A stretch of 64,000 bases of DNA from Candidatus Methanomethylophilaceae archaeon. Lineage in GTDB: Archaea > Thermoplasmatota > Thermoplasmata > Methanomassiliicoccales > Methanomethylophilaceae. The stretch covers positions 64,001 to 128,000 of the forward strand of contig CALUHR010000013.1 in NCBI GenBank assembly GCA_944320495.1, given 5' to 3'. Below, one piece after another: positions 2,926-46,070 of the stretch; the stretch's first letter is position 1, and every line of letters begins with the position of its first letter. The position numbers were made by a program, and so were the translations under genes. The notes under the pieces are model-generated. The model did no database searches, was not told where the DNA came from, and worked only from the letters and a program-made list of their open reading frames with translations.

Positions 2926-4152
2926 ATGGAGGACTGGATCTACGAGAACCTGGAGACCGCCCGCGCCCTCGCTTCCGAGGGACTGTGCGACAGGTGCCTG
3001 GGCCGCATGTTCGGCAAGGTCGGCACCGGCATGACCAACGACGAGCGCGGACGCATGGTCCGCGAGGCTCTCGCGGAGGAGGGAGACTGCCCTCCCGCAG
3101 TGTCGCCCTGTCCCCTGTGCGAGGACATCTTCGACCTGCTCCCCCGCTTCGCCGAGAACGTGGCGGAGGCGGTGAACCCCATAGAGTCCGACAACTTCCT
3201 CGTCGGCACCAAGGTCGAACCCGAGATCGCCGAGCGCGAGAGGGCCCTGTGGGAGAAGCACCAGCTCCAGAGCCCGGAGGCCATCAAGTCCGAGCTCAAC
3301 CGCGAGATCGGCAAGCTGGCACTCCCCATGATCCACCGCCCGGTGGAGTTCAAGAACCCCCAGGTGGTCGCCCTGGTGGACACCCGCTTCGGCGAGGTCA
3401 AGCTGGACATCGCCCCCCTCTTCATCGCCGGCCGCTACAACAAGTACAGCCGCGAGATCCCCCAGACCATATGGCCCTGCAGGGAGTGCCACGGCAAGGG
3501 ATGTCCCCACTGCCACGGCAAGGGCAAGATGTACGAGACCTCGGTGCAGGAGATCATCGGGGACATCGCCCTGGAGATGGCCGACGGGAAGGAGCACTTC
3601 TTCCACGGCATGGGCCGCGAGGACATCGACGCGCGCATGCTCGGTGACGGGAGGCCCTTCGTCCTGGAGATCTCCCAGCCCAGGAGGAGGTTCATAGACC
3701 TGGACGAGCTCGAGAGGAGGTCCAGCGCAGGCGACATGGCAGCGTTCAACTCCCTGCACTTCGTCCAGCGCGAGGCCGTCGAGAGATACAAGGGTGCCGC
3801 GTCCGACAAGGTCTATCGCGTGCGCGTTAAAGCAGACGGCAAAGTTAATAAAGAGGCAGTAGTTGACGTCGCCTTATCGTTCAAGGACGCCGATATAGAA
3901 CAGAGGACTCCACGCCGTGTCGAGCACAGAAGGGCCGACCTGGTCAGGAAGAGGAGGATCCACTGGGTGACGGCGGACTCCTTCGACGGGGACCGGTTCG
4001 ACCTCGAACTCGAGACCGACTCCGGCACGTACGTGAAGGAGTTCGTGTCCGGGGACGACGGCCGCACTCACCCCAACTTCTCTGAGAGGCTTGGGATCCA
4101 GTGCGTCGTCGAGGCCCTCGACGTATTGGCGATTGACTATCACGAACCACGA
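2926..4152 (+). CDS. pus10: tRNA pseudouridine(54/55) synthase Pus10 (408 aa if CGA at 4150-4152 is the stop)
   Basis: 'LCDRCLGRMF', 'GRYNKYSREIPQT.W', 'FHGMGREDIDARMLG.GRPFVLE', 'SGTYVKEFVSGD.GRT.P', terminal 'LDVLAID'. First in-frame CGA follows four codons after 'AID', 10 nt before the rpl21e ATG. Confidence 0.92.
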
Positions 4153-7368: not shown

Positions 7369-7950
7369 ATGTCATCGAACATGGATCTCGAGAGGTTCAG
7401 AGAGCTGATGGCGAGGGACGGAAGGATCGTCTTCCCCTCCGAGGACGTAGGCGCGTTCTTGAACGAGGCGGCCGACAGGTCCCGCCGCATCACCATGGAC
7501 CTCAACACCGAATACCACACGATGGAGGAGATCCGCTCCATCATGTCGGAGCTCATATGCGAGCCCGTGGGCGAGGGGTTCAGATTGTTTCCTCCGTTCC
7601 ATGCGGACTTCGGCATGAACATCCACATCGGAAGGGACGTGTTCATCAACGAGGGGTGCTGCTTCCAGGACCAGGGAGGAATCTGGATAGGCGACGGATC
7701 GATGATAGGTCAGCAGGTCGTCATGGCCACCCTCGACCACGACCTGGACCCGGAGCACAGATATGACATGTTCCCGGGGCCGATTCACATCGGCAGGAAC
7801 GTCTGGGTCGGTGCCCATGCGACGATACTCAGGAACGTGACCATAGGCGACGGGGCCGTCGTGGCGGCCGGTGCGGTGGTCACGAGGGATGTCCCGCCGA
7901 ACACGGTCGTCGCCGGGGTGCCAGCGAAAGTCGTGAAGACCGTGGATCGA
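7369..7950 (+). CDS. Maltose/galactoside O-acetyltransferase (hexapeptide repeat; 193 aa with CGA stop 7948-7950)
   Basis: 'PPFHADFG.NI.IG..VFIN', 'PIHIG.NVWVGA.ATIL.NVTIGDGAVVAAGAVVTRDVP.NTVVAGVPAKVVKT'. The family ends at this last motif and CGA follows 2 codons later; the standard code gives 625 aa running across ychF. Confidence 0.9.
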
Positions 7951-8026
7951 TTCTGGCACTTCGGATGCGGATGGGAAATCGCCCGACACAATTTAACGCG
8001 AGTACCCCCATCGGCCCCGGGATCAC

Positions 8027-9214
8027 ATGCAGATAGGAATCGTAGGGAAGCCGAACGTCGGCAAGTCGACCTTCTTCGGAGCAGCCACCATGGCGCCGGT
8101 GGAGATCGCCAACTATCCCTTCACCACCATCGAGCCCAACAAGGGCGTCGCTTACGTGCGCACACCGTGCCCCTGCAGGGAGCTCGGCGTCAAGTGCACA
8201 CCGCACAACTCGATCTGCGTCGACGGGACCAGGATGGTCCCAGTGGAACTCCTGGACGTCGCCGGGCTGGTCCCCGACGCGTGGCAGGGCAAGGGCCTGG
8301 GAAACAAGTTCCTGGACGACCTGAGGCAGGCGGACGCCCTGATCAACGTCGTGGACGCCAGCGGCTCCACCGACATCGAGGGGAACCCCGTGGACACCGG
8401 CACCCACGACCCGACCGAGGACATCCTGTTCCTCAGGACCGAGATCGAGTGCTGGATGCGCGAGATCATCAAGAACGGCTTCGCCAAGATAGCCAGACAG
8501 GCCAAGATGCAGGGATCCAAGCCCGAGGCGATACTCGCGGAGAGGCTCCAGGGGCTGAAGGTCACCGAGACCCAGATCAAGGAGGCCCTGAGAGAGGTCC
8601 CTCTCCCGGACGACCCCACCAAGTGGGACGACGACCTTCTGCTGAAGCTGTGCGGAGCCATCCGCGAGCGCTCCAAGCCGATGATCGCCGCCATGAACAA
8701 GGCCGATCTCGCCTCGAAGGAGAACCTCGCGAAGATCGAGGCGGTCAACCCGATCTGCGTCCCCACCATGGCCGAGACCGAGCTCGCCCTCAAGAAGGCC
8801 GCCGCCGGCGGACTGGTGGACTACACCCCGGGCGACGCCACCTTCAGGATCAAGGACGGGGCGAAGGTCTCCGAGGGACAGAGGAAGGCCCTCGAGTACA
8901 TGGCGGAGAACATGGAGCGCAACGGCGGCACCGGCGTCCAGAGATGCATCGAGGAGGCCGCGTTCAAGATGCTGGACCTCATCTGCGTCTATCCCGTCGA
9001 GGACGAGACCAAGTTCACCGACCACTTCGGCAGGGTCCTGCCGGACGCGTTCCTGGTGCCCCGCGGCAGCACCGCCCGGGACCTGGCGTACCGCGTGCAC
9101 ACCGACCTCGGGGACAAGTTCATACGCGCCGTCAACGCGAAGACCAAGCGCACCGTCGGTGCGGACTACGTCCTCCAGGACGGCGACGTCATCAGGATAG
9201 TCGCCAACAAGTGA
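8027..9214 (+). CDS. ychF: Obg-family ATPase YchF/OLA1
   Basis: 'GIVGKPNVGKSTFF', 'ANYPFTTIEPN', 'DVAGLVP.A..G.GLGNKFL', C-terminal TGS domain. Confidence 0.95.
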   Translation: MQIGIVGKPNVGKSTFFGAATMAPVEIANYPFTTIEPNKGVAYVRTPCPCRELGVKCTPHNSICVDGTRMVPVELLDVAGLVPDAWQGKGLGNKFLDDLRQADALINVVDASGSTDIEGNPVDTGTHDPTEDILFLRTEIECWMREIIKNGFAKIARQAKMQGSKPEAILAERLQGLKVTETQIKEALREVPLPDDPTKWDDDLLLKLCGAIRERSKPMIAAMNKADLASKENLAKIEAVNPICVPTMAETELALKKAAAGGLVDYTPGDATFRIKDGAKVSEGQRKALEYMAENMERNGGTGVQRCIEEAAFKMLDLICVYPVEDETKFTDHFGRVLPDAFLVPRGSTARDLAYRVHTDLGDKFIRAVNAKTKRTVGADYVLQDGDVIRIVANK

Positions 9215-9221
9215 GGTTCCC

Positions 9222-11633
9222 ATGGAAACCGCGGAGATCAGGATAATCAGCACGTCGTCCGCCACCCTGGATGAGGAGCCCGTAGTAGAGATCTACGGCA
9301 AGGCCAGGGACGGCAGGTCCGTGACCGTCCTGGTCCGCGGGTTCCATCCGTACCTCTACGGGGTGGAGGTCCCGGAGAAGCTGGAGCGCCAGCTCTCCGA
9401 GGACCCCGAGGTCGTCTCGGTCGAGCACCATCCCCTCCTCTTCAGGGGGAGGAACGTCGATGCGCTGAGGATCACGATCAAGAGTCCCTGGAAGGTCTCA
9501 GACATGCGCAGCAGGCTCCGCGCCAACGGCGTCGAGTCCCTCGCATCCGACATCCCGTTCAACCACCGCTACATCTACGACCAGGACATGGGCGCCTGCA
9601 TCCGCGTGACGGGCGAGCCCGTGGACCGCGGGTACTTCACCGACCTGACGATCGAGCTGTCCTCGTTCGAGAACGTGGACCCCTTCGACCCCGGCCTGAA
9701 GACGCTGTCCTTCGACATCGAGAACAGCGTCGAGCACGATTTCCTGTACTGCATCTGCTCCGTGGTCCATGAGAACGGGACCATGCGGGCCTGCGACCCC
9801 ATCTACGGCACCGAGCCGCAGATCATCCAGGCCTTCTCCGACCTCATCAGGAGGGAGGACCCGGACGTCATCACCGGGTACAACATCGAGAACTACGACA
9901 TCCGCAAGATCGAGGAGCGCGCCAAGGCCAATCGCATGAAGGATGCGATGCCCTGGGGCCGCGACGGCAGCCAGCCGAGGCTGCGCAACGACCGCTTCTG
10001 GCGGGTGAGAGGGCGCATCGTGTGCGACGCCTGGTGGGCCGCCCGCAGAGAGCTCCATCCCAAGCAGGAGACCCTCAACGCGGTCTCCAAGGAGCTCCTC
10101 GGAGAGACCAAGCTGGACGTCGACCCCCGCCACATGGACCAGGAGTGGAGGGACAACCGCGCGAAGGTCCTCGAGTACTGCACCAAGGACGCGGAGCTGG
10201 CACTGCGCATCCTGAACGAGGTGGAGACGGTCCGCAAGGGTATGGACCTGGCGGCGGTGTCGAAGCTGTCGGTGGAAGACGTCCTCTCGTCCGGATCCTC
10301 GCAGCTCGCCGACTCGCTGCTCATCCGCGCGGCGGACCGCGCGAACGTCGCCGTCCCCCAGATGGGCAAGCGCACCAGGGACGACGAGCAGATCGAGGGG
10401 GGATACGTGCACGACATCAAACCGGGACTGTACCACTGGGTCTGCGTCCTGGACTTCAAGTCCATGTACCCGTCCACCATCATCGCCAAGAACATCTGCT
10501 TCACCACGCTCTCCCCCGACGGGGAGATCGTCGCCCCGTCAGGCACAAGGTTCCTCTCCAAGGAGAAGCGCCTCGGGCTCCTGCCGATGATCCTCCAGGG
10601 CCTCATGGACCAAAGGGATTCTATCAAGAGGCAGATGAAGCAGACGACGGACGAGCACGAGCGCAGATACCTGGACGGACTGCAGGCGGCCGTCAAGGTG
10701 CTGATGAACACATTCTACGGGGTGTTCGCCTCATCCTTCTACAGGTTCACGGACAAGAGCATCGGTGCCGCGATAACATCGTTCGCGCGTGCCAACGTCA
10801 AGGGCATCATCGGCGAGCTGCAGTCGGAGGGTCACCATGTGGTGTACTCGGACACCGACTCCGTCTTCGTCCAGTCGCCGAAGGACGACATGGACGGCGC
10901 CATAGGGTTCGGGACGGCGATGGCCGATCGCTACTCCCGGGACGGCGGCACGCTGGAGTTCGAGAAGATCCTCGAGCCCCTGTTCACCCACGGCAAGAAG
11001 AAGAGGTACGTCGGCCGCGTGGTATGGCCCGTGAGGCAGGAGGACCTGCTGGTGCGCGGATACGAGAGCAGGAGGACCGACTCCTTCGACCTCCAGGACC
11101 GCCTCCAGACAGAGATGTTCGCATGCATACTGGACGAGCGCAACGAAGACGCCCTGGCGCTTGCCAGGAAGGCGATCCAGGACACACTGGCCGGACGGGT
11201 GGACCCTTCGGACCTGGTGATATCCAAGACATGCAAGGGGCTAGATGCCTACGAGAACCCCGACCGCATGGCGAACGTCCAGGCGGCCAAGAAGATGATC
11301 GAGCTAGGGTACGACTTCATCCCGGGCATGAAGGTCTCGTGGATCGTCACCGACGCCAAGTCCGCCCCCATGAGGGTGGAGCCATACATCAGCGGTCCCC
11401 AGTTCACGGCGAAGCCCGACTACCGCTACTACGCGGAGCGTCTGGCGAAGATGGCCGGCATGGTCACAGATGTGCTTGGATGGGGCGAGAAGGACCTCAT
11501 GATGGGCAGCCAGCAGGCCACCCTCCTGGACGGCGGGATGTTCTCGTCCAAGGAGTCCGACGCCCCGCAGAGGGAGCCTCCGAAGGCCCCCAAGCCCAAG
11601 TCCAAGGTCCGGAGCCTTGACGAGTTCTTCCGA
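9222..11633 (+). CDS. polB: Family B DNA polymerase (803 aa with CGA stop 11631-11633)
   Basis: Exo I 'SFDIE', Pol A 'LDFKSMYPS', Pol B 'KVLMNTFYG', Pol C 'YSDTDS', 'KKRY'. Ends with the PIP-box-like 'KVRSLDEFF' immediately before CGA. Confidence 0.96.
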
Positions 11634-21874: not shown

Positions 21875-22617
21875 CACAGCACCTCCTTCATGACGAGCGC
21901 GTCCTTCGGACAGTCGTCGATGCAGTTGCTGCAGCTGATGCACTTGACCTCGTCGATGACGGGGCGGAGGATCGGTTTGCCGGTCTTCTCGTTGGTTCCC
22001 TTCTCCACCATCTGGATGGCGTCGACGGGGCAGACCTTGGCGCACTTCTTGCAGCCGATGCACTTGGCGTCGGTCAGCTCCGGCCTGTCGAGACTGAACA
22101 CGGACACGCGCCTCTCGGCGTTGCCGTTGTCGATGTCCGACTGCAGAGTGACCTCCAGCTTGACCTTCATGCCCTCGGTGGTCTTGTCGTACGCGAGCCT
22201 GCGGGGTCCGTACAGCAGGTCGAACCTGGTGAACTCGGCGAGCTCGTACTCGGGGGTGACGGTCATGGCGTCGACGGGGCAGTACTCGGCGCAGTATCCG
22301 CACATGGCGCACCTGCCGAGGTTGACCTGAGGCCTCTTGACGGTCTTGCCGTCGGCGGCCTCTGAGTCGACGATCTTGATGCACGCGGTGGGGCACATGC
22401 GGGCGCACATGCCGCATCCGACGCATTTGTCGAAATCGAGTCCCGGGCGTCCGCGATAGTTGTCCGGCACCCACTCCTTCTCGTAGGGGTACAGGACGGT
22501 GACCGGCCTGTGGAAGACGGTCTTCGCGAAGAGCTTCAGGACGTGCCACTGGGGTTTGATGACCCAGAGTCCCCTCGCTGTGCTGCGGGGGTACTTTTCG
22601 AGATACTTCATAGCCAT
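21874..22617 (-). CDS. fpoI: Fpo-like complex subunit I (NuoI) with four CxxCxxCxxxCP motifs
   Basis: 'T..YPYEK...PDNYRG', CVGCGMCARMCP, CAMCGYCAEYCP, CIGCKKCAKVCP, CISCSNCIDDCP. Confidence 0.93.
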   Translation of the reverse strand: MAMKYLEKYPRSTARGLWVIKPQWHVLKLFAKTVFHRPVTVLYPYEKEWVPDNYRGRPGLDFDKCVGCGMCARMCPTACIKIVDSEAADGKTVKRPQVNLGRCAMCGYCAEYCPVDAMTVTPEYELAEFTRFDLLYGPRRLAYDKTTEGMKVKLEVTLQSDIDNGNAERRVSVFSLDRPELTDAKCIGCKKCAKVCPVDAIQMVEKGTNEKTGKPILRPVIDEVKCISCSNCIDDCPKDALVMKEVL

Positions 22618-23795
22618 CGGAAGAACCCTCCTACCTTGAGCAGCAGAACGACTGCCAGGTTGATCACGGACAGGGGCATGAAGACCTTCCATCCGATGTT
22701 GACGATCTGGTCGGGCCTGACACGTCCGAGGGCGGCCCTCACGAGGATCATGAGGAAGAACACGAACCAGGTCTTCAGCAGGAACACGATCTCGGGTATG
22801 GGGCCGTTTCCGATGATGGGGAGCGCCCATCCGCCGAGGTACATGATTGTGACCATGGCGCACGCGACGTAGCCTCTGAAGTAGTCGGCCAGCATGATGA
22901 GACCCCACTTCATTCCGGCGTACTCGGTCTGCCATCCCTCGACCAGCTCGGCCTCTGCCTCGGCGATATCGAAGGGCACACGCTCGGACTCCGCTGTGGC
23001 GCAGAAGAAGAACGTGATGAAACCGATGATCTGCGGGATGAAGTACCAGACGGTCTCGTACTGGGCGTCCACAATGTCGCCGATGTTGAAGCTGCCGGCG
23101 AGCAGGGCGGTGGTCGCGATCATGATGAGCATCGGGACCTCATAGGAGATCATCAGCTCGGCCGCACGCATACCTCCGATCATGGCGTACTTGTTGTTCT
23201 GGGACCATCCGGACACAAGGATGAAGAACGGGGCCAGGGCGAAGAACGCCATGATGATCAGGAGACCGGAATCGTAGTTGACGACGAACCATCTCTGGGA
23301 CAGAGGGATCATACAGGCGAGCAGGACGGAGACACCGATGACCAGGGACACAGTCCACATGTAGGTCATGTTGTCGACCTTCTTCGGGATGGTGTTCTCC
23401 TTCATGAAGGTCTTGAGACCGTCGGCAACGCACTGGAGGAATCCCTTCATTCCCACCATGGTTCCCCTTCTGTCCATCATCCTACCGAGGCACTTACGCT
23501 CCATCCATAGGGAGATGAGCGTACATACGAACACCACGATGAAGACGATGAGCATGAAGATTATCAGCGACAGGAGGACGCACACGGGCTCGCTCATGAG
23601 CCAGTCCGACACGGGGTTCTCCGGGAAGATCAGGTTGATGAGCCAGGCGAGGGCTCCTCCGATGATCTTCCAGAGGCCGTACGAGATGGCGAACGGCAGG
23701 TTGTAGACGTCCTCGAACGGGTAGTACGCGTTGTCCATCACGTACTGGCCGTTGAAGTCGATGAAATCCAGGATGCTTGTGTATTCCACTACCAC
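22608..23795 (-). CDS. fpoH: Fpo-like complex subunit H (NuoH)
   Basis: 'WMERK..GRM.DRRG', 'QCVADGLK.F.KE', 'GGMRAA...ISYE', 'ERVPFDIAEAEAELV.G..TEY.G', 'RVRPDQ'. GTG start at 23795 or 23804. Confidence 0.93.
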   Translation of the reverse strand: MVVEYTSILDFIDFNGQYVMDNAYYPFEDVYNLPFAISYGLWKIIGGALAWLINLIFPENPVSDWLMSEPVCVLLSLIIFMLIVFIVVFVCTLISLWMERKCLGRMMDRRGTMVGMKGFLQCVADGLKTFMKENTIPKKVDNMTYMWTVSLVIGVSVLLACMIPLSQRWFVVNYDSGLLIIMAFFALAPFFILVSGWSQNNKYAMIGGMRAAELMISYEVPMLIMIATTALLAGSFNIGDIVDAQYETVWYFIPQIIGFITFFFCATAESERVPFDIAEAEAELVEGWQTEYAGMKWGLIMLADYFRGYVACAMVTIMYLGGWALPIIGNGPIPEIVFLLKTWFVFFLMILVRAALGRVRPDQIVNIGWKVFMPLSVINLAVVLLLKVGGFFRWL

Positions 23796-23800
23796 GCTGA

Positions 23801-24964
23801 TCACCTGTCGGTTTCTCCGAGGCACATGTCGATCTGGGCGAGGACGGCCGGAACATCGGCGATCCTGACGCCCTGGCACTGCAGCTTGGCGGAGGATACG
23901 TTCGTGAAGATCGGACTGCGGACCTTGAGCCTGTAGGGCTTGTCGGTTCCGTCGGACACGAGGTACATGAGGGACTCGCCGCGCGGGTCCTCCATCCTCA
24001 TGAAGTGGGTTCCGGCGGGGACCCTGGACGGGGCCTTGACCCTGTAGGGGGCGTTCTTCCCGAGAGCCTGGATCTTCTTCACGGCCTGCCTGATGATCTC
24101 GCAGGACTGGAACATCTCCTCGGTACGGATCATGTACCTGGCGTAGGAATCGCCCTCGGTCAGCACGGGGACCTCGAAGTCGACCTTGTCGTAGTTGTCG
24201 TAGGGGTCGTCCCTGCGGATATCGAAGTCGACGCCGCATCCCCTCATGGCGGGGCCGGTGAGTCCGACGTTGGCGGCCTGCTCCCTGGTGATGTAGCTGA
24301 TGCCTTTCATCCTCGATACGATGATCGAGCTGTCGTCCATCAGCGCGATGATCTCCCAGAGGGCCTTCTCGAACCTGTCGACGGTGCGGAGGATGTCCCT
24401 GTCGAAGAGCTCGGTGGTGTCGTTGCGGACACCTCCGATCCTCGGGTAGTTGGTGGTCATCCTGGCTCCGCAGAGCTTGACGTTCAGGTCGAGGAAGTAC
24501 TCCCTCTCCCTCATGGCCCACAGGAAGACGGTCAGGTTACCGAGGTCGGTACCTACCGCGGCGAGCCACATGAGGTGCGAGTTGATGCGGCAGACCTCGT
24601 CCGCCACGATCCTGATGTACTTGGCCTTCTCCGGGATGTCCATCCCGAGGGCCTTCTCGACCGTCATGCAGTACAGGTGGGTGTAGGTCATCGAGGCGGC
24701 GTAGCAGAGACGGTCCGCCATGGGGATGATCTTGGGATAGGTCCTGTTCTCGGTCTCCTTCTCCCACCCCCTGTGCAGGTAGCCGACGATGGGCTCCGCA
24801 TCAACGCAGATCTCTCCGTCGACCTTGATCTTCAGGGTCCACAGTCCGTGCGAGAACGGGTGCTGGGGTCCCATGATGATCCACATCTTGTCGGTTTCCA
24901 TCTTGTCGGCCTGCTGCTGGAGCTTCTCCTCGGCCGCAACGATGGGCGCTATTGAGTCAGCCAT
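23801..24964 (-). CDS. fpoD: Fpo-like complex subunit D (NuoD)
   Basis: 'GPQHP.SHG', 'GYLHRG.EK', 'DRLCY', 'LTGP.MRG.GV..DIR', 'E.PRGE', 'PYRLKVRSP'. Confidence 0.96.
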   Translation of the reverse strand: MADSIAPIVAAEEKLQQQADKMETDKMWIIMGPQHPFSHGLWTLKIKVDGEICVDAEPIVGYLHRGWEKETENRTYPKIIPMADRLCYAASMTYTHLYCMTVEKALGMDIPEKAKYIRIVADEVCRINSHLMWLAAVGTDLGNLTVFLWAMREREYFLDLNVKLCGARMTTNYPRIGGVRNDTTELFDRDILRTVDRFEKALWEIIALMDDSSIIVSRMKGISYITREQAANVGLTGPAMRGCGVDFDIRRDDPYDNYDKVDFEVPVLTEGDSYARYMIRTEEMFQSCEIIRQAVKKIQALGKNAPYRVKAPSRVPAGTHFMRMEDPRGESLMYLVSDGTDKPYRLKVRSPIFTNVSSAKLQCQGVRIADVPAVLAQIDMCLGETDR

Positions 24965-26383: not shown

Positions 26384-26494
26384 TAACTAAGGAAGGCCAG
26401 CTTAAATTATATTTAAAAGAAAGAGGGGAGCGAGATAAGCCAGGACCCGGCGAATCGCCACACCTATTTAGTGGCACTGGGATGCCCATCCATC

Positions 26495-27304
26495 ATGACC
26501 GCACGCATCGGATTCATCGGCGCCGGGAAGATGGCCGAGGCCCTGATGGCCGGACTCCTGGCGAAGGGCGTATGCTCGAAGGACGACATCATCGCCTGCG
26601 CCCCCAGCGAGGGGACCAGGAGGCACATCTCGGAGACCTACGGGATCGCGATGTTCCAGACCGCCACCGAGGTGGTCTCCATGGTGGACGAGGTCGTCCT
26701 CGCCGTCAAGCCCGCGCAGGTCCGCACCGTGATGGTCGACGAGGGCGCCGCATCGGCCTTCAGGCCCGGGACCCTCCTCCTCAGCGTCGTCGCGGGGCTC
26801 ACCGTGAACGGCCTGAAATCATATGTGCCAGACGCAAAGATCGTGCGTGTCATGCCGAACCACTGCGTGGCCGTTCTGGAGGGCGCCATGGGCTACACCA
26901 CGGACGGCACGCTGACCCCCGAGGAGCTGAATGGAGTATCATCCATCCTGGGTTCCGTGGGCCTCGCCGTGCAGGTGCCCGAGGAGAAGATGGACGCCAT
27001 CACCGGCCTCGCCGGGAGCTCCCCCGCGTTCATATATCAGGTGATAGACGCGATGGCCGACGCTGGCGTGCTCAACGGCATCCCGAGGAGGGACGCCATA
27101 ACACTGGCCGCGCAGTCGGTGCTGGGGGCCGCCAAGATGGTTCTCGAGACCGGGAAGCACCCGGACCAGCTGAAGGACGAGGTCTGCTCCCCCGGCGGCA
27201 CCACCATCGAGGGCGTCCGCGCCGCGGAGGACATGGGACTCCGCTCCGCGATGATCGCCGCGGTGGATGCGGCGGTATCCAAGTCGAGGGAGATGAGCAG
27301 GCGA
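26495..27304 (+). CDS. proC: Pyrroline-5-carboxylate reductase (269 aa with CGA stop 27302-27304)
   Basis: 'IGFIGAGKMAEAL', 'LAVKP', 'RVMPN', 'GLAGSSPAF', 'L...VCSPGGTTIEG', terminal 'AA..KSREM' directly before the CGA. Confidence 0.95.
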
Positions 27305-29029
27305 TCGGCGCCTCAGGAACGACTTCGCGAGGCCCATGACCACCCTGGGACCGTTGGACCATATCGATCCGGCGTCCCAGTCCAGGTCCTTCTTGTTGGC
27401 GATGGTGGAGTTCATCATCCTGATGCCCTCCTCCTTCGTCTCCCACAGCTTCGCATCCCTCTCCCCCTGATCGGGGATGAGCATGATCTCGTCGATGCGG
27501 TGCATCAGCGAGCGGGCCTTCTCCGTGCGGTCGACCCTGTCGTCATAGACCTCCTTCGATGTGCGTCCCGCCTCGTGCTCGCATCTCGCGAGCTCGTTGG
27601 CCGCGTCGTAGGAGATCTCGGCGACGTCGTCCCTGGTCATCCACTTCGTCTCGTAGGACAGGACGTGCTTCCACGATGGGTTGTCCAGGAGCCTCCTGTG
27701 GTCCTCCAGCGTGTGGGCGCGGAGGGTGTATCCCCACTCGTCGGGATGCTCGAATATCCTGCTCCCGGGGTCGACGAAGGGCGCGAACGGGGCGTTGTAG
27801 ATGAACAGGTTGTCCTCCGGCCTGACCGAATCCCATAGCTTCTTGGAGGCTCTGGCACTGTTCATGGCGGACTCGCGGTCCTGGAACGGGAGACCGTTCA
27901 TGTAGAACAGGTCGAACCTGCTGCAACCGCATTCGAAGGCCGTCGGCACGGTGCGCTCGATGGCCTCGTTCGTATAGCCCTTCCCGAGCGCCGAGCGCAC
28001 GGCCTCGTCGTGGGAGTCGGGCGAGAACTCGATGGACCATCCGGCCTCCAGGGAGCGGTCGATCTCCGTGAAGTAGTCCGGTCCGGCGCCGTTGAAGAGC
28101 TCGATGACCACATGGTTCCTTATGCCGATCTCGCGGCACTCCCTGAGGAACCTGGTGGCGTAGTCGCGGCCGGCCTGCCTCAAGTCGCCCACGATGAACA
28201 CGGGAGTGTCAAGATAGGACTGAATGGACTCTATGTCCTGTGCGAGCCTCTCCGGGCTGCGGAACGCCGGCTTCCTCCTGCAGACGACGGTTCCGTTCGC
28301 GTAGTGGGAACCGCCGCACTCGGCGCAGTTGATGGAGCATCCGCGCACTGTGAACACGGAGGTCAGCGGGAGCCTGTCCCACCCGTACCACGGGAGGGCC
28401 CCTTTGATGTCCATGTTCCTGAGGACACCGCGGATCATCGTCCCGTAGTCGAACCTTATGGAATCCAGCGATTCCAGAGAATGGGACACGCCGTTGTCGT
28501 GCACCTTCCCCTCGGAGTCCTTCCAGACGAGGTTCGGCACCTCCGACAGGTCACCTCCCCTCTGCAGGACCTCCATCATCTTCACGGTCGGGACCTCGGT
28601 GGTGTCCCCGCACATGACCAGGTCCACCTCGGGACGGCGGATCAGCTCGTCCTTGAAGTAGGACGACGTGAGCCCCCCGAACTCGACCTTCGATTCGGGA
28701 TGGAGCCTCTTGACGATCTTCGCCAGCTCCAGCGCGCCGTGCGCGTGGGGCATCCAGTGGAGGTCTATGGCGAAGACGTCAGCATGGAGCTTGCGGATGC
28801 ATTCCTCGGCGTCGAAGCTGTCGCTCTGCAGCATCCGGACCGCGATGTTGACGATGCGGGTGCGGAAGCCTGCGGCCTCCAGCTCCGAGGAGATGGTCAT
28901 GAAGCCCACGGGGTACATCTCGAACACCGGGGACGACGGGATGACGTCGGACACCGGCCCGTAGAATATGGGCTTCTTGCGGAAATCGTAGACGCTGGGC
29001 GCATGCAGGAACACTATCTCCGTCTTCAA
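27305..29029 (-). CDS. B12-binding radical SAM protein (574 aa with CGA stop 27307-27305)
   Basis: N-terminal 'FLHAPSVYDFR', B12-binding domain 'AIDLHWMPH', 'RGCSINCAECGGS' (CxxxCxxC). TTG start. Confidence 0.88.
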
Positions 29030-29033
29030 CCGA

Positions 29034-29819
29034 TCATCTCCCGAAGCGCCTGACGCGCTGCTGATAGGTGCGTATGGCCCTCAGCAGGTCTATGTGCCTG
29101 AATCCCGGCCAGTACACGTCCGTGAAGTATAGTTCGGAATAGGCGAGCTGCCAGAGCAGGAAGTTGGACACCCTGACCTCCCCGGACGTGCGGAGCACCA
29201 GGTCCGGGTCGGGCATCCCCGTGGTGGAGATGTACCCAGACACCGTGTCCTCGTCTATCTCGTCGACGGATATCTTCCCATCGACGGCGTCCTGGGCTAT
29301 CGCGCGGACGGCGTTGGCGATGTCCTGCCTCCCGCCGTAGGCGATGGCCATGTTGAGGAACCTCTCGTTGTATCCAGAGGTGCGCTCGTAGGCGTAGTCC
29401 ATCGCCTTGCGGACCTTCTCCGGAAGGAGATCCGTCTGGCCTATGACGCGGATGCCCACCATGTTGGCGTGCACGTCCTCGTCGTCGGCGAACTCGTACA
29501 GCGACTGCTCCAGCAGGTCCATGAGGTACTCGACCTCGTCCGAGTCCCGCTTGAAGTTCTCCATGGAGAACGCGTAGACGGTGAGGACCTTGATGTCCAG
29601 GTCCATGCACCAGTGGAGGACCTCCTCCAGCTTCTTACGGCCCAGCCTGTGGCCCTCGAGCGGCGGGCTGCCCAGCACCTCCTCGGCGTAGCGCCGGTTG
29701 CCGTCCATTATGATGGCTATGTGCTGGGGCATCTCCCCCGCACGCACCTCCTTCTCGAGCTGCGCGTCGTAGGTGGCATACGCCCTGTCTGTTAATATCC
29801 CCTTGAGGTCCATGCTCAT
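29034..29819 (-). CDS. uppS: Undecaprenyl/polyprenyl diphosphate synthase (cis-prenyltransferase)
   Basis: 'HIAIIMDGNRRYA', 'TVYAFS.ENFKR', 'AIAYGGRQDI', 'PDLVLRTSGEVRVSNFLLWQ.AYSE', 'RRFG'. Confidence 0.95.
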   Translation of the reverse strand: MSMDLKGILTDRAYATYDAQLEKEVRAGEMPQHIAIIMDGNRRYAEEVLGSPPLEGHRLGRKKLEEVLHWCMDLDIKVLTVYAFSMENFKRDSDEVEYLMDLLEQSLYEFADDEDVHANMVGIRVIGQTDLLPEKVRKAMDYAYERTSGYNERFLNMAIAYGGRQDIANAVRAIAQDAVDGKISVDEIDEDTVSGYISTTGMPDPDLVLRTSGEVRVSNFLLWQLAYSELYFTDVYWPGFRHIDLLRAIRTYQQRVRRFGR

Positions 29820-30763
29820 TCGAAGTCCTCGGGGATCCCCGCGGCCCTCTCGCCGATGTCGAAGCATCCTATGGCAGCGACGGCGCCGATGACGCCCTTG
29901 GTCCCGGTGACGCTGATGATCTGGACCCCGCACTCCTCGGCGACGCGGACGGCATCGTCCGTCGTGTACAGGACGGATTTGCAGGACCAGCCGTACTCCC
30001 TGAGGCGCTCCGGGATCTCCAGACCCTGGAACACTGTCAGGACCGCGTCCTCGGAGTAGCTCTCCTTGCGGACGAAGTCCACGGCGTACTCGATGAGCGC
30101 CGGGATCTCCTCCTCGCGCACGGCGAAGGAGACGGCGGTGGAGCAGCAGTTGGTGGTCTTGTTGGGGACCTTCGGGTTGAGCTGGATGATCTTGTGCTCC
30201 AGGAACCTCCCCACGGGGCAGGTGGTCCCGAGCTTGAGGGACACCACCCACGAGGCGCCGGCCTCCTTGGTGTCGGTGTCGTCGATGCCGATGATCACCC
30301 TGACCATCTTGGGCGTGATGATGTCCACGTGGGCGCGGTGCGCCCCTCCGATGGTGAAGTCGTCCGGATACTCGGTGCGGATCACATCGGGGCACTGCGG
30401 TATGCACGCGCCGATGCCGACGGAGGCGCCGGCTATGCCGTACCAGGTGGTGCGGACCTCGTCCCCCTCCACCTTCAGGGCGCTGAGCCCCTGGCCGCCC
30501 ACGTCGGAGGACACTGGGCCGAAGCTCAGCTCGCTCTCCCCGATGCGGGCGTTCATCACGAGCATGTCCGACTCCTGGCGGATATCCTCTATGACGCCCT
30601 TGGTGCGGCGCCTATTGACCAGGTCCCACTCGCCGGGGCCCTTGGAGGCGCATTTCTCGACGATCATGGCCTTGCCGGCCTTCTCGTCCACCAGGGTGTA
30701 GAACCCCCTGCAGAACAGAGGCCCGTACTTCGCGCGGACCTCGTCCGGTCTCAGCACGTACAT
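29816..30763 (-). CDS. Methanogenesis marker protein 11 (contains a TiaS-like GxDDTD domain)
   Basis: 'GIAGASVG...C', 'IIGIDDTDT.E.GASW', 'KTTNCCSTAV.F', 'G..G.IGAVAAIG'. Confidence 0.75.
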   Translation of the reverse strand: MYVLRPDEVRAKYGPLFCRGFYTLVDEKAGKAMIVEKCASKGPGEWDLVNRRRTKGVIEDIRQESDMLVMNARIGESELSFGPVSSDVGGQGLSALKVEGDEVRTTWYGIAGASVGIGACIPQCPDVIRTEYPDDFTIGGAHRAHVDIITPKMVRVIIGIDDTDTKEAGASWVVSLKLGTTCPVGRFLEHKIIQLNPKVPNKTTNCCSTAVSFAVREEEIPALIEYAVDFVRKESYSEDAVLTVFQGLEIPERLREYGWSCKSVLYTTDDAVRVAEECGVQIISVTGTKGVIGAVAAIGCFDIGERAAGIPEDFE

Positions 30764-31440
30764 CGCTCGACCTCCTCGTCGTCATCGTCGACCGGACCGG
30801 TGTCCCAGTCCTCCGGGTCGGCGATGTCGATGGCGTCCGACGGGACGTGCTTGCAGAGGAACACAGTCCTGGCGGCCCTGCCGATGTCGGCGCCCATCTC
30901 GATGCAGACGCCGGTGTCTATGACCAGGATCTCGGGTTCGTCCATCCTGACGGACCCTGCGCGGACGGCGTCGCGGAACGACAGGGACAGATGGACCATG
31001 TTGCGGTCCGTCGGCGATATGCCGTCGCGGAGGATGTCCTCGGTCTCCTCGGGGGAGACGGGGTAGAACAGCTCCGGGGGTATGTCCTCGTTGTCCAGCT
31101 TGAGGTCCAGCGGGATGGTGTGGCCGTACGTGGCGCGGACCTTGCCGCCGGCGATGGAGTAGCGGCCCTTCGGGTCGGTCTCCACCAGGGCCTCGATGTG
31201 CCTCGGCCTCAGCCAGTTCATGTAGGTGTGGCGCCCCCTGATCAGGGCGACCACCTGCTGCATGGGCACCCAGCCCTGATCGTCCATGTCCGGCTCGAAC
31301 TTGCCGTGCCTAAGGATGGCGGCAAGCGTGCGTCCGATCCTCTCGACCTCCTTGTCAGAAAGGATGAACTTGCCCTCCTCCCCGCAGTGGGGACATCTCT
31401 CGTCACGGAAGTAGCCGTGTTCCTCGCATTCCCTTATCAT
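30763..31440 (-). CDS. kptA: RNA 2'-phosphotransferase KptA/Tpt1 with N-terminal zinc finger (CGA stop 30765-30763)
   Basis: 'C.EHGYFR...CP.CG', 'LAAILRH', 'D..GW', 'KGRY', 'RATYGH', 'R.MVHLS'. The CGA overlaps the next ATG (CGATG). Confidence 0.88.
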
Positions 31441-32327
31441 CTTGATACCCCCGCTGCCTTCTCGGCCGCGCGGACGGCGTTGGCCATCAGCATGCAGATC
31501 GTCATCGGTCCGACCCCTCCCGGGACCGGCGTGATAGCCGATGCGACCTCCTTCACGGCATCGAAGTCCACGTCCCCGACGAGCCTGCTGCCCTTGGGGT
31601 GCGTCGGATCATCGACCCTGTTGGTGCCGACGTCGATCACGACCGCTCCCGGTCTGACCATGTCGGCCGTTATGAAGCGCGGCTTCCCGATCGCCACGAC
31701 CAGGATGTCCGCGGTGCGCGTGATCTCGGCGAGGTTGGCCGTCCTGGAGTGGACGACGGTGACCGTGGAATCCGCCCCAGGGCCCTTCTGGACCATCAGC
31801 GCGGCCATGGGCTTGCCCACGATGTTGCTCCTCCCGACGACCACCACGTGTTTGCCGGCGATCTCGACCCCGGAACGGACCAGCATCTGCTGGACGCCGG
31901 CGGGGGTGGCCGGCATGAAGTCCGGGTCCCCGATGAGGAGCTTCCCCACGTTGGACGGATGGAAGCAGTCCACGTCCTTCTCGGGGGATATCGAGGCGAT
32001 CACGACCTCCTCGTCGATGTGCGGAGGCAGCGGCAGCTGGACCAGGAACCCGTGGATGTCCTCGTCAGCGTTCAGCTCGGCGATCTTCCCGAGAAGCTCC
32101 TCCTGGGTGGTCTCGGCCGGCATGCGGATTATCCTCGAGCGCATCCCCAGCTCCTCGCACATCTCGCCCTTCTTCCTCACGTAGACCTGCGATGCGGGAT
32201 CGTCGCCCACGAGGATCACCGCGAGCCCGGGGACCGTCCCATGCTCCTTCAGGGATGCGATCCTCTGCCTGAGCTCCGCGTAGATCTCCTCCGAGACCTC
32301 CTTTCCCAGTATGAGCTTGGCTGTCAT
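31437..32327 (-). CDS. folD: Bifunctional methylene-THF dehydrogenase/cyclohydrolase
   Basis: 'PGLAVILVGDDPAS..YV..K', 'LVQLPLP', 'EKDVD.FHP.N.G', 'VGRSNIVGKP', 'ITPVPGGVGPMT'. Confidence 0.97.
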   Translation of the reverse strand: MTAKLILGKEVSEEIYAELRQRIASLKEHGTVPGLAVILVGDDPASQVYVRKKGEMCEELGMRSRIIRMPAETTQEELLGKIAELNADEDIHGFLVQLPLPPHIDEEVVIASISPEKDVDCFHPSNVGKLLIGDPDFMPATPAGVQQMLVRSGVEIAGKHVVVVGRSNIVGKPMAALMVQKGPGADSTVTVVHSRTANLAEITRTADILVVAIGKPRFITADMVRPGAVVIDVGTNRVDDPTHPKGSRLVGDVDFDAVKEVASAITPVPGGVGPMTICMLMANAVRAAEKAAGVSR

Positions 32328-32527
32328 CTGCCTCCTCCTTCTGGCCGCCCATCGCCAATCCCATATAAAGAGAAACGCGCGCGTGGAAGGGTGGGTCTGA
32401 CGGCCGACATAGCCTACGGATGGGCCCGTAGGACTCCCTATGATACCTCGACAACGAACTTAACGGTCCCGAGACTGGACAGCCACTGCTGTGATCCCAT
32501 GACCGATTCACGCATGGAGGCGCCGCG

Positions 32528-33799
32528 ATGAGCGGCTTCGGACTGACCAGGACCGAGAGGTCCTGGGTCATGTACGACGTGGGGAACTCCGCGTTCACCC
32601 TGATGCTCTCGACCATCATCCCGATCTACTTCAACTCGGTCGCGGGCGAGGAGCTCTCGTCCGTAGACTATCTGGCATACTGGGGATACGCCGCCTCTAT
32701 CGCCACCCTCCTGTGCGCCGTCCTCGGGCCCGTGCTCGGAGCCTACTCAGACCGCAGCGGCCTGAGGATGAGGATGTTCGTGGCCGCCCTCGGGGTCGGC
32801 GTGATCGGATGCGCCCTTCTGGGATTCATCAGCGCATGGCTGGCCTTCCTGGTGGTGCTAGTGGTGACGAGGCTCGGATACTCCCTGAGCCTGGTGTTCT
32901 ACGACTCGATGCTCGTGGACGTCACCACACCGTCCCATTCCGACAGGGTCTCCGCGGCCGGATACGCGTGGGGGTACATCGGCAGCTGCGTGCCGTTCGT
33001 CGCCTGCCTGGTCCTCATCCTCGGATGTGATTCGTTCGGCATGACCATGGGCCAGGCGATGACCGTGTCCCTCATCGTAATCGCCGCGTGGTGGGTCGCC
33101 GCCAGCATCCCGCTCGTGAAGAACTACAAGCAGATCCACAGCGTCGACGCGAGGTCCGAGGGGGCGCTCCGCACCCTCGCGAGGACGATCCGCAACGCCA
33201 GGGGAGAGAGGAAGGCGTTCGTCTTCCTCGTCGCGTTCTTCTTCTACATCGACGGGGTCTACACGATCATCGAGATGGCCACCGCCTACGGGCAGTCCAT
33301 GGGCCTCGACACAACGATGCTGCTCGTCGCACTTCTGGTGACACAGGTGGTGGCGTTCCCGTTCACCATCGCCTTCGGCAGGATGTCGACCAGGTTCGAC
33401 ACGTCCAGACTCATCATGGTCTGCATCGTGGCGTACATGCTCATCACGGTCGTCGCGTTCTTCATGACGTCCATCACCCAGTTCTTCGCGCTGGCCGTCA
33501 TGGTCGGGATGTTCCAGGGAGGGATCCAGGCGCTCTCCAGGTCCCACTTCTCCAGGATCATCCCGCCGGAGAGGGCGGGCGAGTTCTTCGGGCTCATGGA
33601 CATCTTCGGCAAGGGGGCGTCCTTCACTGGGACACTGGTGGTCTCCGCGGTCAGCCAGCTGACCGGACAGACCTCCTTCGGGATCCTGTCCCTCGTGGCG
33701 CTCTTCGCGATAGGTCTGGCACTGTTGGTCGTGTCATCCCGTACGCCTTCGAACAGGGATCATTCGGACACGGCGTGCACGGAGGCGCAATCGGCTTGA
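32528..33799 (+). CDS. MFS transporter, UMF1/Atg22-like family
   Basis: 'SWVMYDVGNSAF', 'P.LGAYSD', 'SLVFYDSML', 'GYIGS', 'FFYIDG', 'GGIQALSRS', 'EFFG...IFGK'. Confidence 0.88.
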   Translation: MSGFGLTRTERSWVMYDVGNSAFTLMLSTIIPIYFNSVAGEELSSVDYLAYWGYAASIATLLCAVLGPVLGAYSDRSGLRMRMFVAALGVGVIGCALLGFISAWLAFLVVLVVTRLGYSLSLVFYDSMLVDVTTPSHSDRVSAAGYAWGYIGSCVPFVACLVLILGCDSFGMTMGQAMTVSLIVIAAWWVAASIPLVKNYKQIHSVDARSEGALRTLARTIRNARGERKAFVFLVAFFFYIDGVYTIIEMATAYGQSMGLDTTMLLVALLVTQVVAFPFTIAFGRMSTRFDTSRLIMVCIVAYMLITVVAFFMTSITQFFALAVMVGMFQGGIQALSRSHFSRIIPPERAGEFFGLMDIFGKGASFTGTLVVSAVSQLTGQTSFGILSLVALFAIGLALLVVSSRTPSNRDHSDTACTEAQSA

Positions 33800-33824
33800 A
33801 CCAGCCGGCGATGGAAGTGACGAT

Positions 33825-34616
33825 ATGCCGTCGACTTACGCCCACCTGAGACTCGGACGCGAAGTGCTCGAGAGGCTCGATGGAGAGCCCCGCAGGGTCT
33901 GCGAGGAGCATGGGGGCCTGTACCTGATAGGCCTGCACGGCCCGGACATCCTGTTCTACTACGATGCGCTTCACAGGAACCCCGTCAGCTCGGTGGGCTT
34001 CGGGATGCACGACAGACCGGGGAGGGAGCTGTTCGAGCGCGCGAAGGCCTCGCTCCCGGAAACAGGGGACGCGGGCAGGGCGTACGCTTACGGGTTCGCC
34101 TGCCACTTCGCGCTGGACAGTGAGGCACACCCGTACATCGAGGAGTACATCCATGCCCACGGGGTGGCCCACACGGCCATCGAGGGGGAGTTCGACAGGA
34201 TGCTGCTCGAGAGGGACGGCATCGAACCCAAGAGGGCGTACCTCGCCGGCCACATATCCGCCGATGAGAGTGACTGCAAGGTGATCTCCAGGTTCTTCCC
34301 CGGCGTGACCCCGGAGCAGGTCTCCAGGGCCCTGGAGGACATGAGGAGGTACAACAGGCTCCTGGTCGCCCCGGGGAGATTCAAAAGATGGGTCATCGAG
34401 CGCACCCTGAGGAGGAGCGGGAACTACGATGACATGATTGGCCTGGTCCTGAGGAACGAGCCGGACCCCCGGTGCGGGGAGAGCGACAGGGAGCTGGACC
34501 GCATCTACGACGGGGCGGTCGCCCTGTCGGTGGGGCTCATCGGCGACCTCGAGAGGTACTTCGACGGCTCCGCCGAGCTTCCCCCGAGGTTCGACAGGAC
34601 CTTCTCCTACATGTGA
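33825..34616 (+). CDS. Zinc-dependent phospholipase C family protein
   Basis: N-terminal 'MPSTYAH', 'G..GPDILFY', 'H', 'AY.YGFACHFALDS..HPY', 'H..IE..FD'. Confidence 0.75.
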   Translation: MPSTYAHLRLGREVLERLDGEPRRVCEEHGGLYLIGLHGPDILFYYDALHRNPVSSVGFGMHDRPGRELFERAKASLPETGDAGRAYAYGFACHFALDSEAHPYIEEYIHAHGVAHTAIEGEFDRMLLERDGIEPKRAYLAGHISADESDCKVISRFFPGVTPEQVSRALEDMRRYNRLLVAPGRFKRWVIERTLRRSGNYDDMIGLVLRNEPDPRCGESDRELDRIYDGAVALSVGLIGDLERYFDGSAELPPRFDRTFSYM

Positions 34617-34620
34617 CGGA

Positions 34621-36522: not shown

Positions 36523-36601
36523 GGCATCGTCAGCGCGTGTACCTATTTAGAGACCCCGCGGACGGCAACAGATATGAACGGCGCAGGGGCATCATCGGCG
36601 C

Positions 36602-37504
36602 ATGAGGTCCGCGCTCCTGATACTGCCCATCCTTTCGGGTGTGATGTGGGGCGCAGCGGGGATATTCGTCCGCACACTCTCGGAGTACGGCTTCGACGGT
36701 CAGACCATCGCGTTCTCGCGCGTGCTCATCGCCATGGCCATGATGCTCCTGCTGATCCTGGCAACCGACAGGAGGATGCTCTCGTTCAGGAGGCGCGACA
36801 TCTGGCTGTTCGTCCTGTGCGCGGTGTCGATGACGGGGCTGAACGTGTTCTACACCATAGCCGCCGACGAGCTCTCGCTCTCCCTGGCGGCTGTCCTGCT
36901 CAGCCTGTCCCCGGTGTTCATGGTCCTCATCGCCCGCGTCATATTCGGCGAGGCCATCACCAGGCGCAAGGTGTTCTGCATAGCCGTATCCATCGTGGGA
37001 TGCGTCCTGGTGAGCGGATACCTCGAGAACGAATCTACGCTCTCGATGTTCGGCATCGCGTCAGGAATAGTCGCGGCGGTGTTCTACGCCGTCTACGGAA
37101 TAGCGTCGAAGAAGGCCTCCGCCAGCGGCTACAGCGTCTACACCACGCTGTTCTACTGCATGCTGATCTCCATGGTCATCCTGATCCCGTTCTCAGACCT
37201 CGGCATCGTGGCCGACTACGCGGGCGAGGGGGCCTGGGAGATCGGATTCCTGGTACTGCAGGCGGCGGTGGCATCGTTCCTGCCGTACATCCTGTACTCG
37301 GTGGCGATGGCGCGCATCGAGGCGGGCACGGGGTCGCTCCTGGCGGCCTGCGGGGAGCCGGTGGCGGCCGCCGTGTTCGGACTCCTGGTGTTCGCGGAGG
37401 TGCCGAGCCCGATCATGGTTGTCGGCATGGCCCTCGCCATCGGGGCGATGGCCACGATATGCATGAACCCCAAGAGGGAGGGGAACCTCGCGGAGGATCA
37501 TCGA
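36602..37504 (+). CDS. EamA/DMT family transporter (300 aa with CGA stop 37502-37504)
   Basis: 'MWGAAG.F', 'SLAAVLL.LSPVF', 'LPY.LY..AM.RIEAG..SLL...EPV.AAV.G...F.E'. Confidence 0.9.
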
Positions 37505-37953: not shown

Positions 37954-37963
37954 GAAACCCGCT

Positions 37964-42016: not shown

Positions 42017-42021
42017 CGAAA

Positions 42022-42948: not shown

Positions 42949-43192
42949 GATGGGGGTATCTCCGACTACCCCTATAAGGACGCGCAATGAGGCCTCGTGA
43001 ATGGACTGGAAATAAAATGCATACGATTGTCTGTGACCAATATGCTTATCCCATCGGCTGTCCATCAGAGATTGCATATATCGGAATCCACGGCCCTTCC
43101 GTTTGCGGATGTCGGGACCCGTGGATGATACACAACTAACACCGTGCATGAAACGTTGCAGTGACGTACGCCGTTGAAATACGATATCGGAG

Positions 43193-46042: not shown

Positions 46043-46070
46043 ATTAAAGAAAGAATGGATAGGGCGCAGC

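Follow-up and report, generated by a model that had tools for sequence, protein, structure and literature searches.

A CGATG junction between kptA and the gene for methanogenesis marker protein 11 points to CGA as a termination codon in a genus of Methanomethylophilaceae

Introduction

In the genome of a Candidatus Methanomethylophilaceae archaeon, a gut methanogen, the gene for an RNA 2'-phosphotransferase (kptA; Tpt1/KptA) meets the gene for methanogenesis marker protein 11 (marker 11) on the minus strand at the pentamer CGATG, in which ATG is the marker-11 start and CGA lies in the kptA frame. Does kptA end at this CGA, as a gene would at the TGA of a TGATG overlap, or is the codon read as Arg? 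The window, the whole stretch of DNA analyzed, is 64,000 nucleotides long and comprises positions 64001-128000 of contig C13 (CALUHR010000013.1, assembly GCA_944320495.1) of genome G000, a 1.77 Mb assembly in 14 contigs with 62% GC. Below, G-numbers denote genomes and L-numbers loci of relatives, G000 being the window's own genome.

Our analysis points to the CGATG being, as judged from sequence, a true stop/start overlap and to an archaeal genetic code that has not been described. The data support three statements: CGA appears to mark coding ends genome-wide, the junction matches a TGATG in relatives, and the trait seems to be shared by the genus and absent in the two outgroup families sampled. 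We think it quite probable that the genus uses CGA as a fourth termination codon and no longer as an ordinary Arg codon, the release factor aRF1 being its most likely reader.

The junction of kptA and marker 11

The minus strand reads ...GAC GAG GAG GTC GAG CGA TGT ACG TGC TGA, with CGATG exactly at 30765..30761. An earlier note on this DNA had claimed a one-base overlap, the last base of the kptA CGA being the first of the marker-11 ATG, and this arrangement is present. The CGA (30763..30765, minus strand), codon 226 and the proposed stop of kptA, contributes its A at 30763 as the first base of the ATG (30761..30763, minus strand). With CGA as a stop, our four-stop gene call places kptA at 30763..31440 on the minus strand and gives it 225 amino acids, so that KptA would end ...DDDDEEVE at 30765..30763. 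Under translation table 11 the kptA open reading frame (ORF) spans 30751..31440 and encodes 229 amino acids, the first standard stop in frame being a TGA three codons past the CGA (30751..30753, minus strand). This TGA is a possible backup stop. It also lies within the conserved V-L-R codons (CTGAGR) of marker 11 and so has another reason to exist. The marker-11 gene (29816..30763, minus strand) encodes a protein of 315 amino acids with TiaS-like domains and ends in TGA. In its own frame, CGA also occurs at the second and fifth codons upstream of the ATG.

Provided that CGA is a stop, the geometry at 30765..30761 is that of a one-base stop/start overlap. A Shine-Dalgarno (SD)-like motif, GAGGAGGT, is found inside the 3' end of the upstream gene at 30777..30770 on the minus strand, 7-14 nucleotides upstream of the ATG.

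Profile searches support the identity of both genes. KptA matches PF01885 with 78 bits (cut-off 26) and NF002015 with an E-value of 1.5e-55 and 188 bits, under the equivalog cut-off of 279. The NF002015 match covers KptA residues 1-207 and profile positions 3-207 of 210; the conserved part of KptA therefore stops before the acidic tail. Marker 11 matches TIGR03280 (E-value 1.8e-66; 224.3 bits, under the cut-off of 255.8) over profile positions 5-289 of 292, as well as PF22641 and PF08489, and has a homologue in all 31 genomes of the order searched, G000 included.

In 19 of the 20 loci compared, kptA precedes marker 11. In the nearest relative (L002), whose KptA is 98% identical, the junction reads GAC TGA TG where G000 has GAG CGA TG. 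Loci L004 and L009 have TGATG at the junction, and L003 and L011 have CGATG. Similarly, L012 reads ...GAG CGA GGATG where L015 reads ...GAA TGA GGATG. Across 18 relatives the first terminator of kptA is TGA in 14, TAA in one and CGA in three, and the marker-11 start is the same codon or one codon upstream. Taken in isolation, the G000 site could nonetheless be an ordinary 13-nucleotide overlap ending at the TGA at 30753..30751. We therefore turn to the behavior of CGA in the rest of the genome.

CGA is concentrated at the ends of genes

In 1424 crude table-11 ORFs of G000, the number of in-frame CGA codons per ORF decile is 424, 179, 73, 39, 9, 9, 26, 39, 90 and 300. With only 9 in each of the two middle deciles, the 3' pile-up is 33-fold. 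The 5' excess is expected because the ORFs were taken from their first start codon. CGC in the same ORFs is flat at 884-967 per decile. Coding-like sequence changes at the CGA as well. In 252 ORFs with a CGA in their 3' 60%, the mean codon score is +0.43 to +0.48 until six codons before the CGA, drops to -0.52 over the five codons after it and is negative beyond; control profiles around CGG, AGA and CGT remain at +0.26 to +0.48. For the 133 ORFs with tails of at least 15 codons, the score is +0.44 before the CGA and -0.35 after it. Sequence that looks coding flanks the codon on both sides for only 12 of the 531 in-frame CGAs of the table-11 calls, and the majority of these 12 resemble in-frame neighboring genes.

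With CGA as a fourth stop, 1717 genes were called instead of 1616; the coding fraction rose to 0.875 (from 0.845) and the total score to 278k (from 258k). When six control rare codons were given the same role, gene numbers rose with all of them, the coding fraction fell for five and that for TTA was unchanged (0.847). The four-stop calls end in TGA (1214 genes), CGA (425), TAA (57) and TAG (21); TGA and CGA together account for 95% of the gene ends in G000. At CGA ends, C or G is favored before the codon and TC or TG after it. Out of frame, CGA is not depleted inside genes: NCG followed by A occurs 8764 times (observed/expected 0.92) and NNC followed by GA 33,968 times (0.96). The constraint on CGA is thus frame-specific, which fits decoding and not a frame-blind RNA editor or a sequencing bias.

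In the window, 24 of the 68 called genes end in CGA, and 16 CGA-ending ORFs were translated past the CGA up to the next standard stop and searched against Pfam. Matches were obtained for 13 of the 16, every one of them ending before the CGA, and the approximately 2,300 tail codons after the CGA in these 16 ORFs gave no Pfam match. The profile end is reached just before the CGA by P5CR_dimer (105/105, at residue 267 with the CGA at 270), PMSR (153/153) and IF-2B (280/280). The table-11 tails are up to 432 codons long and overrun neighbors, as where the ORF 7381..9246 runs over the gene 8027..9214.

CGATG at stop/start junctions

The earlier note had suggested counting CGATG against TGATG overlaps genome-wide, and we did so for same-strand neighbors at most 60 nucleotides apart in the four-stop calls of G000. 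As a bare pentamer CGATG is frequent, with 11,209 occurrences over the two strands, and meaningless alone; the informative quantity is an in-frame CGA that shares its A with a called ATG. Such CGATG junctions number 49 among the 165 pairs with a CGA-ending upstream gene, in excess of chance, and none of these pairs has a four-base overlap. The 597 pairs with a TGA-ending upstream gene have 20 TGATG junctions and 257 ATGA-type overlaps. CGATG may be the dominant overlap of CGA-ending genes because a four-base overlap is impossible for CGA. Directly after the stop, TG is found at 94 of 425 CGA ends versus 91 of 1214 TGA ends.

We also looked for SD-like motifs 4-18 nucleotides upstream of the junction start. 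They are present at 29 of 49 CGATG junctions, 9 of 20 TGATG junctions and 142 of 257 ATGA-type overlaps, versus 482 of 5151 random intragenic 15-mers (9%). The three TGATG junctions that had been described for the fpo operon of the window (fpoM/N, fpoI/J1 and fpoC/D) were all recovered, at 17379, 21876 and 24966. A second CGATG overlap is found in the same operon at 22615..22619 on the minus strand, between a NuoH/FpoH-type gene (22617..23804; PF00146, NADHdh) and a 4Fe-4S (FpoI-type) gene.

Standard stops in relatives and CGA use across the genus

To follow CGA beyond G000, about 100 kb was sampled from each of six genomes of the genus and two outgroup genomes (G024 and G025). The C-terminal 150 residues of G000 genes were compared with the samples of the six in-genus genomes. 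At 84 positions homologous to a CGA end of G000, the relative has TGA in 29, TAA in 2, CGA in 14 and a sense codon in 39. For the 279 control positions homologous to a TGA end, the figures are 183, 6, 7 and 83, respectively.

Within the genus, CGA varies from a rare to a very frequent gene end. It ends 425 of 1717 genes in G000 under four-stop calling, 43 of 110 (39%) in the G010 sample, 11 of 83 in G013, 9 of 117 in G004, 3 of 104 in G008, 3 of 109 in G007 and 1 of 102 in G015. In ORF deciles 1-8, G013 has 3 CGAs and G004, G008, G007 and G015 have none; the 16 in G010 are explained by long tails. Given these near-zero counts, sense CGA appears to have been abandoned by the whole genus. In the two outgroup genomes, which belong to other families of the order, CGA is spread evenly along the ORFs, with 41 per 100 kb in G024 (43% GC) and 108 per 100 kb in G025 (60% GC). 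Treating CGA as a stop in these two lowers both coding fraction and score.

CGG is nearly as rare as CGA in G007, G008 and G015 (L053-L062 and L088-L092), with 9-13 per 100 kb of ORFs; G000 uses it as an ordinary rare sense codon. From this it seems that the whole CGR pair was nearly lost before CGA returned as a stop. The related loci are recorded under uncultured Methanomassiliicoccales, Ca. Methanomethylophilaceae and Ca. Methanoprimaticola sp.

The release factor and its conserved CGA

G000 encodes a single aRF1 (C2:85933-87174, minus strand, outside the window; TIGR03676, 544 bits). In an alignment of 17 in-genus and 12 outgroup aRF1 sequences, 38 columns set the genus apart. The genus-specific residues include Y27, Q56 and A59 (in ...E-Q-S-Q-A-S-N-I-K-S), T66 and M68, and A122 before Y-R-C-D-S. 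These six positions adjoin the motifs equivalent to GTS, NIKS and YxCxxxF, regions of a type that, from structural work on eRF1, we take to contact the stop codon. The x of YxCxxxF is Arg in all 29 aligned sequences.

The aRF1 gene itself carries a CGA. Exactly one in-frame CGA, at Arg81, is found in 16 of the 17 in-genus genes; the seventeenth has Lys at site 81 and one CGA at Arg28. The codon specifies the Arg of DSIA(A/S)-R-LKT(Y/F)K; all 12 outgroup genes likewise have Arg at this position, encoded by other codons. All 22 further records of at least 82% identity that cover the site also have a single CGA at Arg81. The loci for this observation are L023-L039 and L147-L163. Its flanks are fixed as NCT CGA CTN, and neighboring synonymous sites vary. 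The context T-CGA-CT is found at just 2 of 373 CGA gene ends.

More distant aRF1 genes of 64-79% identity from other Methanomethylophilaceae (L164-L205) were also inspected. Of 40 such genes, 26 have exactly one CGA and none has zero; most often the codon stands at Arg28, Arg53, Arg126 (the x of YxCxxxF) or position 14. Counting mid-ORF CGA in the longest ORFs of a 13-kb locus fails at high GC (72 spurious CGAs in a G000-like locus), so that only low-GC loci were considered. Those among L164-L205 have 0-2 CGAs per approximately 1800 mid-ORF codons, which we take as a hint. The CGA trait may thus extend beyond the genus.

An abnormal tRNA-Arg(UCG) and an interior CGA in a SIS-HAD linker

G000 encodes all five Arg isoacceptors, including tRNA-Arg(UCG) (C13:413317-413390, plus strand, outside the window), which alone among the 45 tRNAs of this genome has a mismatched 31-39 pair. 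We compared tRNA-Arg(UCG) copies (L093-L110, L127, L130, L133 and L135) using an explicit cloverleaf model (R2); an RNAalifold-based model (R1) was discarded as its structure was not a cloverleaf. In all 18 in-genus copies the anticodon arm departs from the canonical form, to which all 8 outgroup copies conform. Fourteen in-genus copies have a 31-39 mismatch (A.A, C.A or U.C), which leaves a 4-bp stem, and compensatory changes at other stem positions. The other four (G005, G007, G008 and G015) have a 27-43 mismatch and the loop CCUCGAC, with a C at the expected U33. The outgroup copies have the canonical 5-bp stem and U33. For G006, tRNA-Arg(UCG) was absent from the three best matches examined.

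A further interior CGA joins a SIS domain and a HAD phosphatase domain in frame (C13:193618-194700 of G000, minus strand, outside the window), with no start codon within 25 codons after it. At this linker (L229-L247) the genus has CGA in 11 genomes, one of them a codon earlier, TAG in one, AGA in two and separate genes in two. In three outgroup genomes the two domains form a plain fusion with a sense codon at this position (AAA in two, CCA in one). The idea that relatives have standard stops at the CGA position was dropped, as codon-level alignment shows mostly CGA. The SIS-HAD CGA looks like a programmed readthrough site that would yield two products.

CGA as a probable leaky stop and the alternatives

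That termination happens at CGA, as the earlier note proposed from the kptA junction, is supported by the position bias, the score step, the Pfam ends, the stops in relatives and the outgroup controls. The factor responsible would be aRF1, reading CGA as a near-copy of UGA. At kptA, a ribosome terminating on the CGA would sit one base into the marker-11 ATG, with GAGGAGGT just upstream, in the geometry of a TGATG coupling junction. On the basis of this geometry and the motif, termination and re-initiation would be physically coupled at the site. CGA is probably a leaky, context-dependent stop rather than an absolute one, given that aRF1 and the SIS-HAD linker have conserved interior CGAs. Low-level readthrough at a few selected codons would be permitted by the abnormal tRNA-Arg(UCG) that the genus retains. 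At codon 81 of aRF1, more aRF1 would cause more termination in its own mRNA, a negative feedback, and the conservation of this codon suggests a control site based on readthrough. More tentatively, and with rather less confidence than in CGA termination as such, we envisage that in the genus, and perhaps in much of the family, a CGA stop is balanced by a weakened tRNA-Arg(UCG) with aRF1 sensing the balance through its Arg81 CGA, and that the spread from about 1% to about 25-39% of genes ending in CGA is codon capture in progress.

Several observations weigh against CGA as a stop. A gene for tRNA-Arg(UCG) persists in 18 of the 19 in-genus genomes examined, so that CGA could still be decoded. The CGAs at aRF1 codon 81 and in the SIS-HAD linker need translation for full-length products, a requirement that would itself explain retention of the tRNA. 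At kptA, the table-11 reading adds merely the tail RCTC and a 13-nucleotide overlap, which is unremarkable. Of the 49 CGATG junctions, 13 read CGATGA and are consistent with either code. The gene calls come from a home-made, self-trained ORF caller, which makes all counts approximate. Finally, when contigs from two DNA runs and two RNA runs were compared with the window over positions 26401-46400, none of the 40 differences listed, of 354 in all, falls at 30763-30765 or at other CGA stops, a result that neither confirms the C nor excludes RNA editing.

If the standard code held and CGA were a very rare Arg codon, KptA would end ...EVERCTC at the TGA 30753..30751 and overlap marker 11 by 13 nucleotides. 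The table-11 ORF is indeed open to this TGA, the cognate tRNA gene is present, the interior CGAs of aRF1 and SIS-HAD stand at Arg or linker positions, and ATGA-type and longer overlaps in the phase of kptA and marker 11 are common. We nevertheless regard the standard code as very unlikely since it leaves unexplained the 33-fold 3' pile-up of CGA and the score step, tails of up to 432 codons that lie over other genes and lack Pfam matches, the standard stops of relatives at homologous positions and the improved gene calls. Another possibility, unlikely though less so than the standard code, is that CGA is effectively unassigned, the crippled tRNA-Arg(UCG) stalling ribosomes that are then released by rescue or by slow, non-specific action of aRF1. 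An anticodon arm that is abnormal in every in-genus copy would be in keeping with this, as would three in-genus genomes that hardly use CGA even as a stop (1-3 genes per 100 kb); CGA termination in yeast has likewise been framed as rescue of stalled ribosomes (PMC7379694). However, CGA ends about 25% of the genes in G000 and 39% of those in the G010 sample, among them the genes for DNA polymerase B, FpoH and Pus10, a load that needs efficient release, and the SD-rich CGATG junctions behave as ordinary coupled junctions.

The remaining alternatives place the change outside the genetic code. As CGA and UGA are one C/U apart, C-to-U editing of the mRNA could turn CGA into UGA before translation. 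An editor would be blind to frame, though, and the 8,764 NCG-A and 33,968 NNC-GA sites inside genes are undepleted; editing would also destroy the conserved Arg codon of aRF1. We therefore hold editing to be highly improbable. Least credible of all, to the point that we give it practically no weight, is an assembly or sequencing artefact writing some TGA as CGA. The window does come from a draft assembly of 14 contigs, but the pattern is frame-specific and recurs in independent assemblies (the in-genus genomes, 16 of 17 aRF1 genes and 22 of 22 further records), and the stretch is contained in runs from 8 studies, labeled as chicken or bird gut or plain metagenome. A frameshift at CGA that fuses KptA to marker 11 was rejected as a general mechanism, since at most CGA ends no gene lies downstream in the frame that it would need.

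Comparison with known systems

To our knowledge, reassignment of a sense codon to stop has so far been described in organelles only. AGA and AGG are stops in vertebrate mitochondria, and UCA and UUA are stops in the mitochondria of Scenedesmus and Thraustochytrium, respectively (NCBI tables 2, 22 and 23). CGA as proposed here would resemble these cases in that a sense codon has turned into a gene end. It differs in that organelle genomes are tiny, whereas this is a free-living archaeon with approximately 1700 genes that keeps the cognate tRNA gene and apparently reads through selected sites. The conserved CGA in aRF1 recalls prfB, the gene for release factor 2 (RF2), which is autoregulated through an in-frame UGA in its own gene that is escaped by +1 frameshifting. 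Both release-factor genes hold a conserved in-frame copy of a codon at which their factor would terminate. In aRF1, unlike prfB, the frame continues, and escape would be by tRNA-Arg(UCG) readthrough. Feedback of this kind may be what archaea have in place of the RF2 frameshift. The CGATG junctions themselves are like TGATG and ATGA coupling overlaps in lying on the same strand, sharing one base between terminator and ATG and having an SD-like motif in the 3' end of the upstream gene; they differ in that the terminator would be CGA and a four-base overlap is impossible.

Codetta reportedly infers amino acids and hence cannot call a sense-to-stop change. The Codetta screen describes bacterial reassignments of the Arg codons AGG, CGA and CGG to other amino acids, and its Table 2 gives zero archaeal sense codons with an unexpected amino acid (PMC8629427). 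Those cases share with ours a change in the meaning of a rare Arg codon of the CGN/AGR set, but they are bacterial and sense-to-sense. Yeast eRF1 measurably decodes CGA as a stop in competition with tRNA-Arg, an activity that F, R or Y at the x of YxCxxxF enhances (Wada and Ito 2018, PMC7379694). In both systems a class-I factor of the aRF1/eRF1 family would end translation at CGA, and aRF1 here has Y-R-C. In yeast, termination at this rare sense codon is a minor side reaction, while in the genus it is apparently the codon's main meaning. Stop reassignment of the Blastocrithidia type involves a tRNA with a short anticodon stem and an altered eRF1 (PMC13092985). There too a codon change stands alongside a tRNA with a 4-bp anticodon stem and substitutions in the N domain of the release factor, but the change is from stop to sense and not from sense to stop.

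Methanomethylophilaceae and other methanogens are known for an ambiguous UAG, read as stop or pyrrolysine (PMC12626013). The same archaeal group thus tolerates a codon of two meanings, and the SIS-HAD linker of one genus member has TAG. The 2025 study of stop usage in Methanomethylophilaceae counts TAA, TAG and TGA only, and 'CGA' never occurs in its available text (PMC12626013). Our literature search gave no report of CGA as an archaeal stop codon, the supplementary tables of the Codetta screen and the 2025 study, which may hide '?' calls for CGA, being outside the search.

If CGA is a stop in this genus, standard annotation misreads up to a quarter of the genes in these genomes, or even more, giving false C-terminal extensions, swallowed neighboring genes and wrong start sites. 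The genus would then be a natural series from near-absence of a codon to its heavy use with a new meaning, in which the codon-capture model is directly testable. The conserved CGA in aRF1 together with the retained abnormal tRNA would suggest that a release factor is autoregulated through a new kind of circuit. Pyrrolysyl-tRNA synthetase (PylRS)/tRNA pairs for genetic code expansion come from relatives of this group, and the decoding rules of the group are therefore of practical interest.

Further CGA-ending genes and minor observations

Other genes of the window illustrate the consequences of table 11. The Pus10 gene (2926..4152, plus strand) ends in CGA at 4150..4152; Pus10_C is complete (232/232) at residue 404, with the CGA at 409, and table 11 adds 214 codons that cross two other genes. 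Likewise, 206 codons are added to the family-B DNA polymerase gene (9222..11633, plus strand; CGA at 11631..11633).

The Flavodoxin_4 gene of G000 (C8:55331-55840, plus strand) has an interior CGA at codon 119, found in none of 14 homologous loci, the closest of which has AGG. It was rejected as a recoding site since it is not conserved. A fresh nonsense mutation or a rare Arg codon are both possible.

In some places convergent genes abut on CGATCG, a palindrome in which both strands end in CGA. At 27302..27307 it is shared by the genes for pyrroline-5-carboxylate reductase (plus strand, stop at 27302-27304) and a B12/radical-SAM protein (minus strand, stop at 27305-27307), beyond which table 11 continues for 178 and 122 non-coding-like codons. 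The same arrangement is seen at 11631-11636 and 58036-58041. Genome-wide, 54 of 373 CGA ends read CGATCG and 20 read CGATCA, and TGATC is likewise the commonest context of TGA ends.

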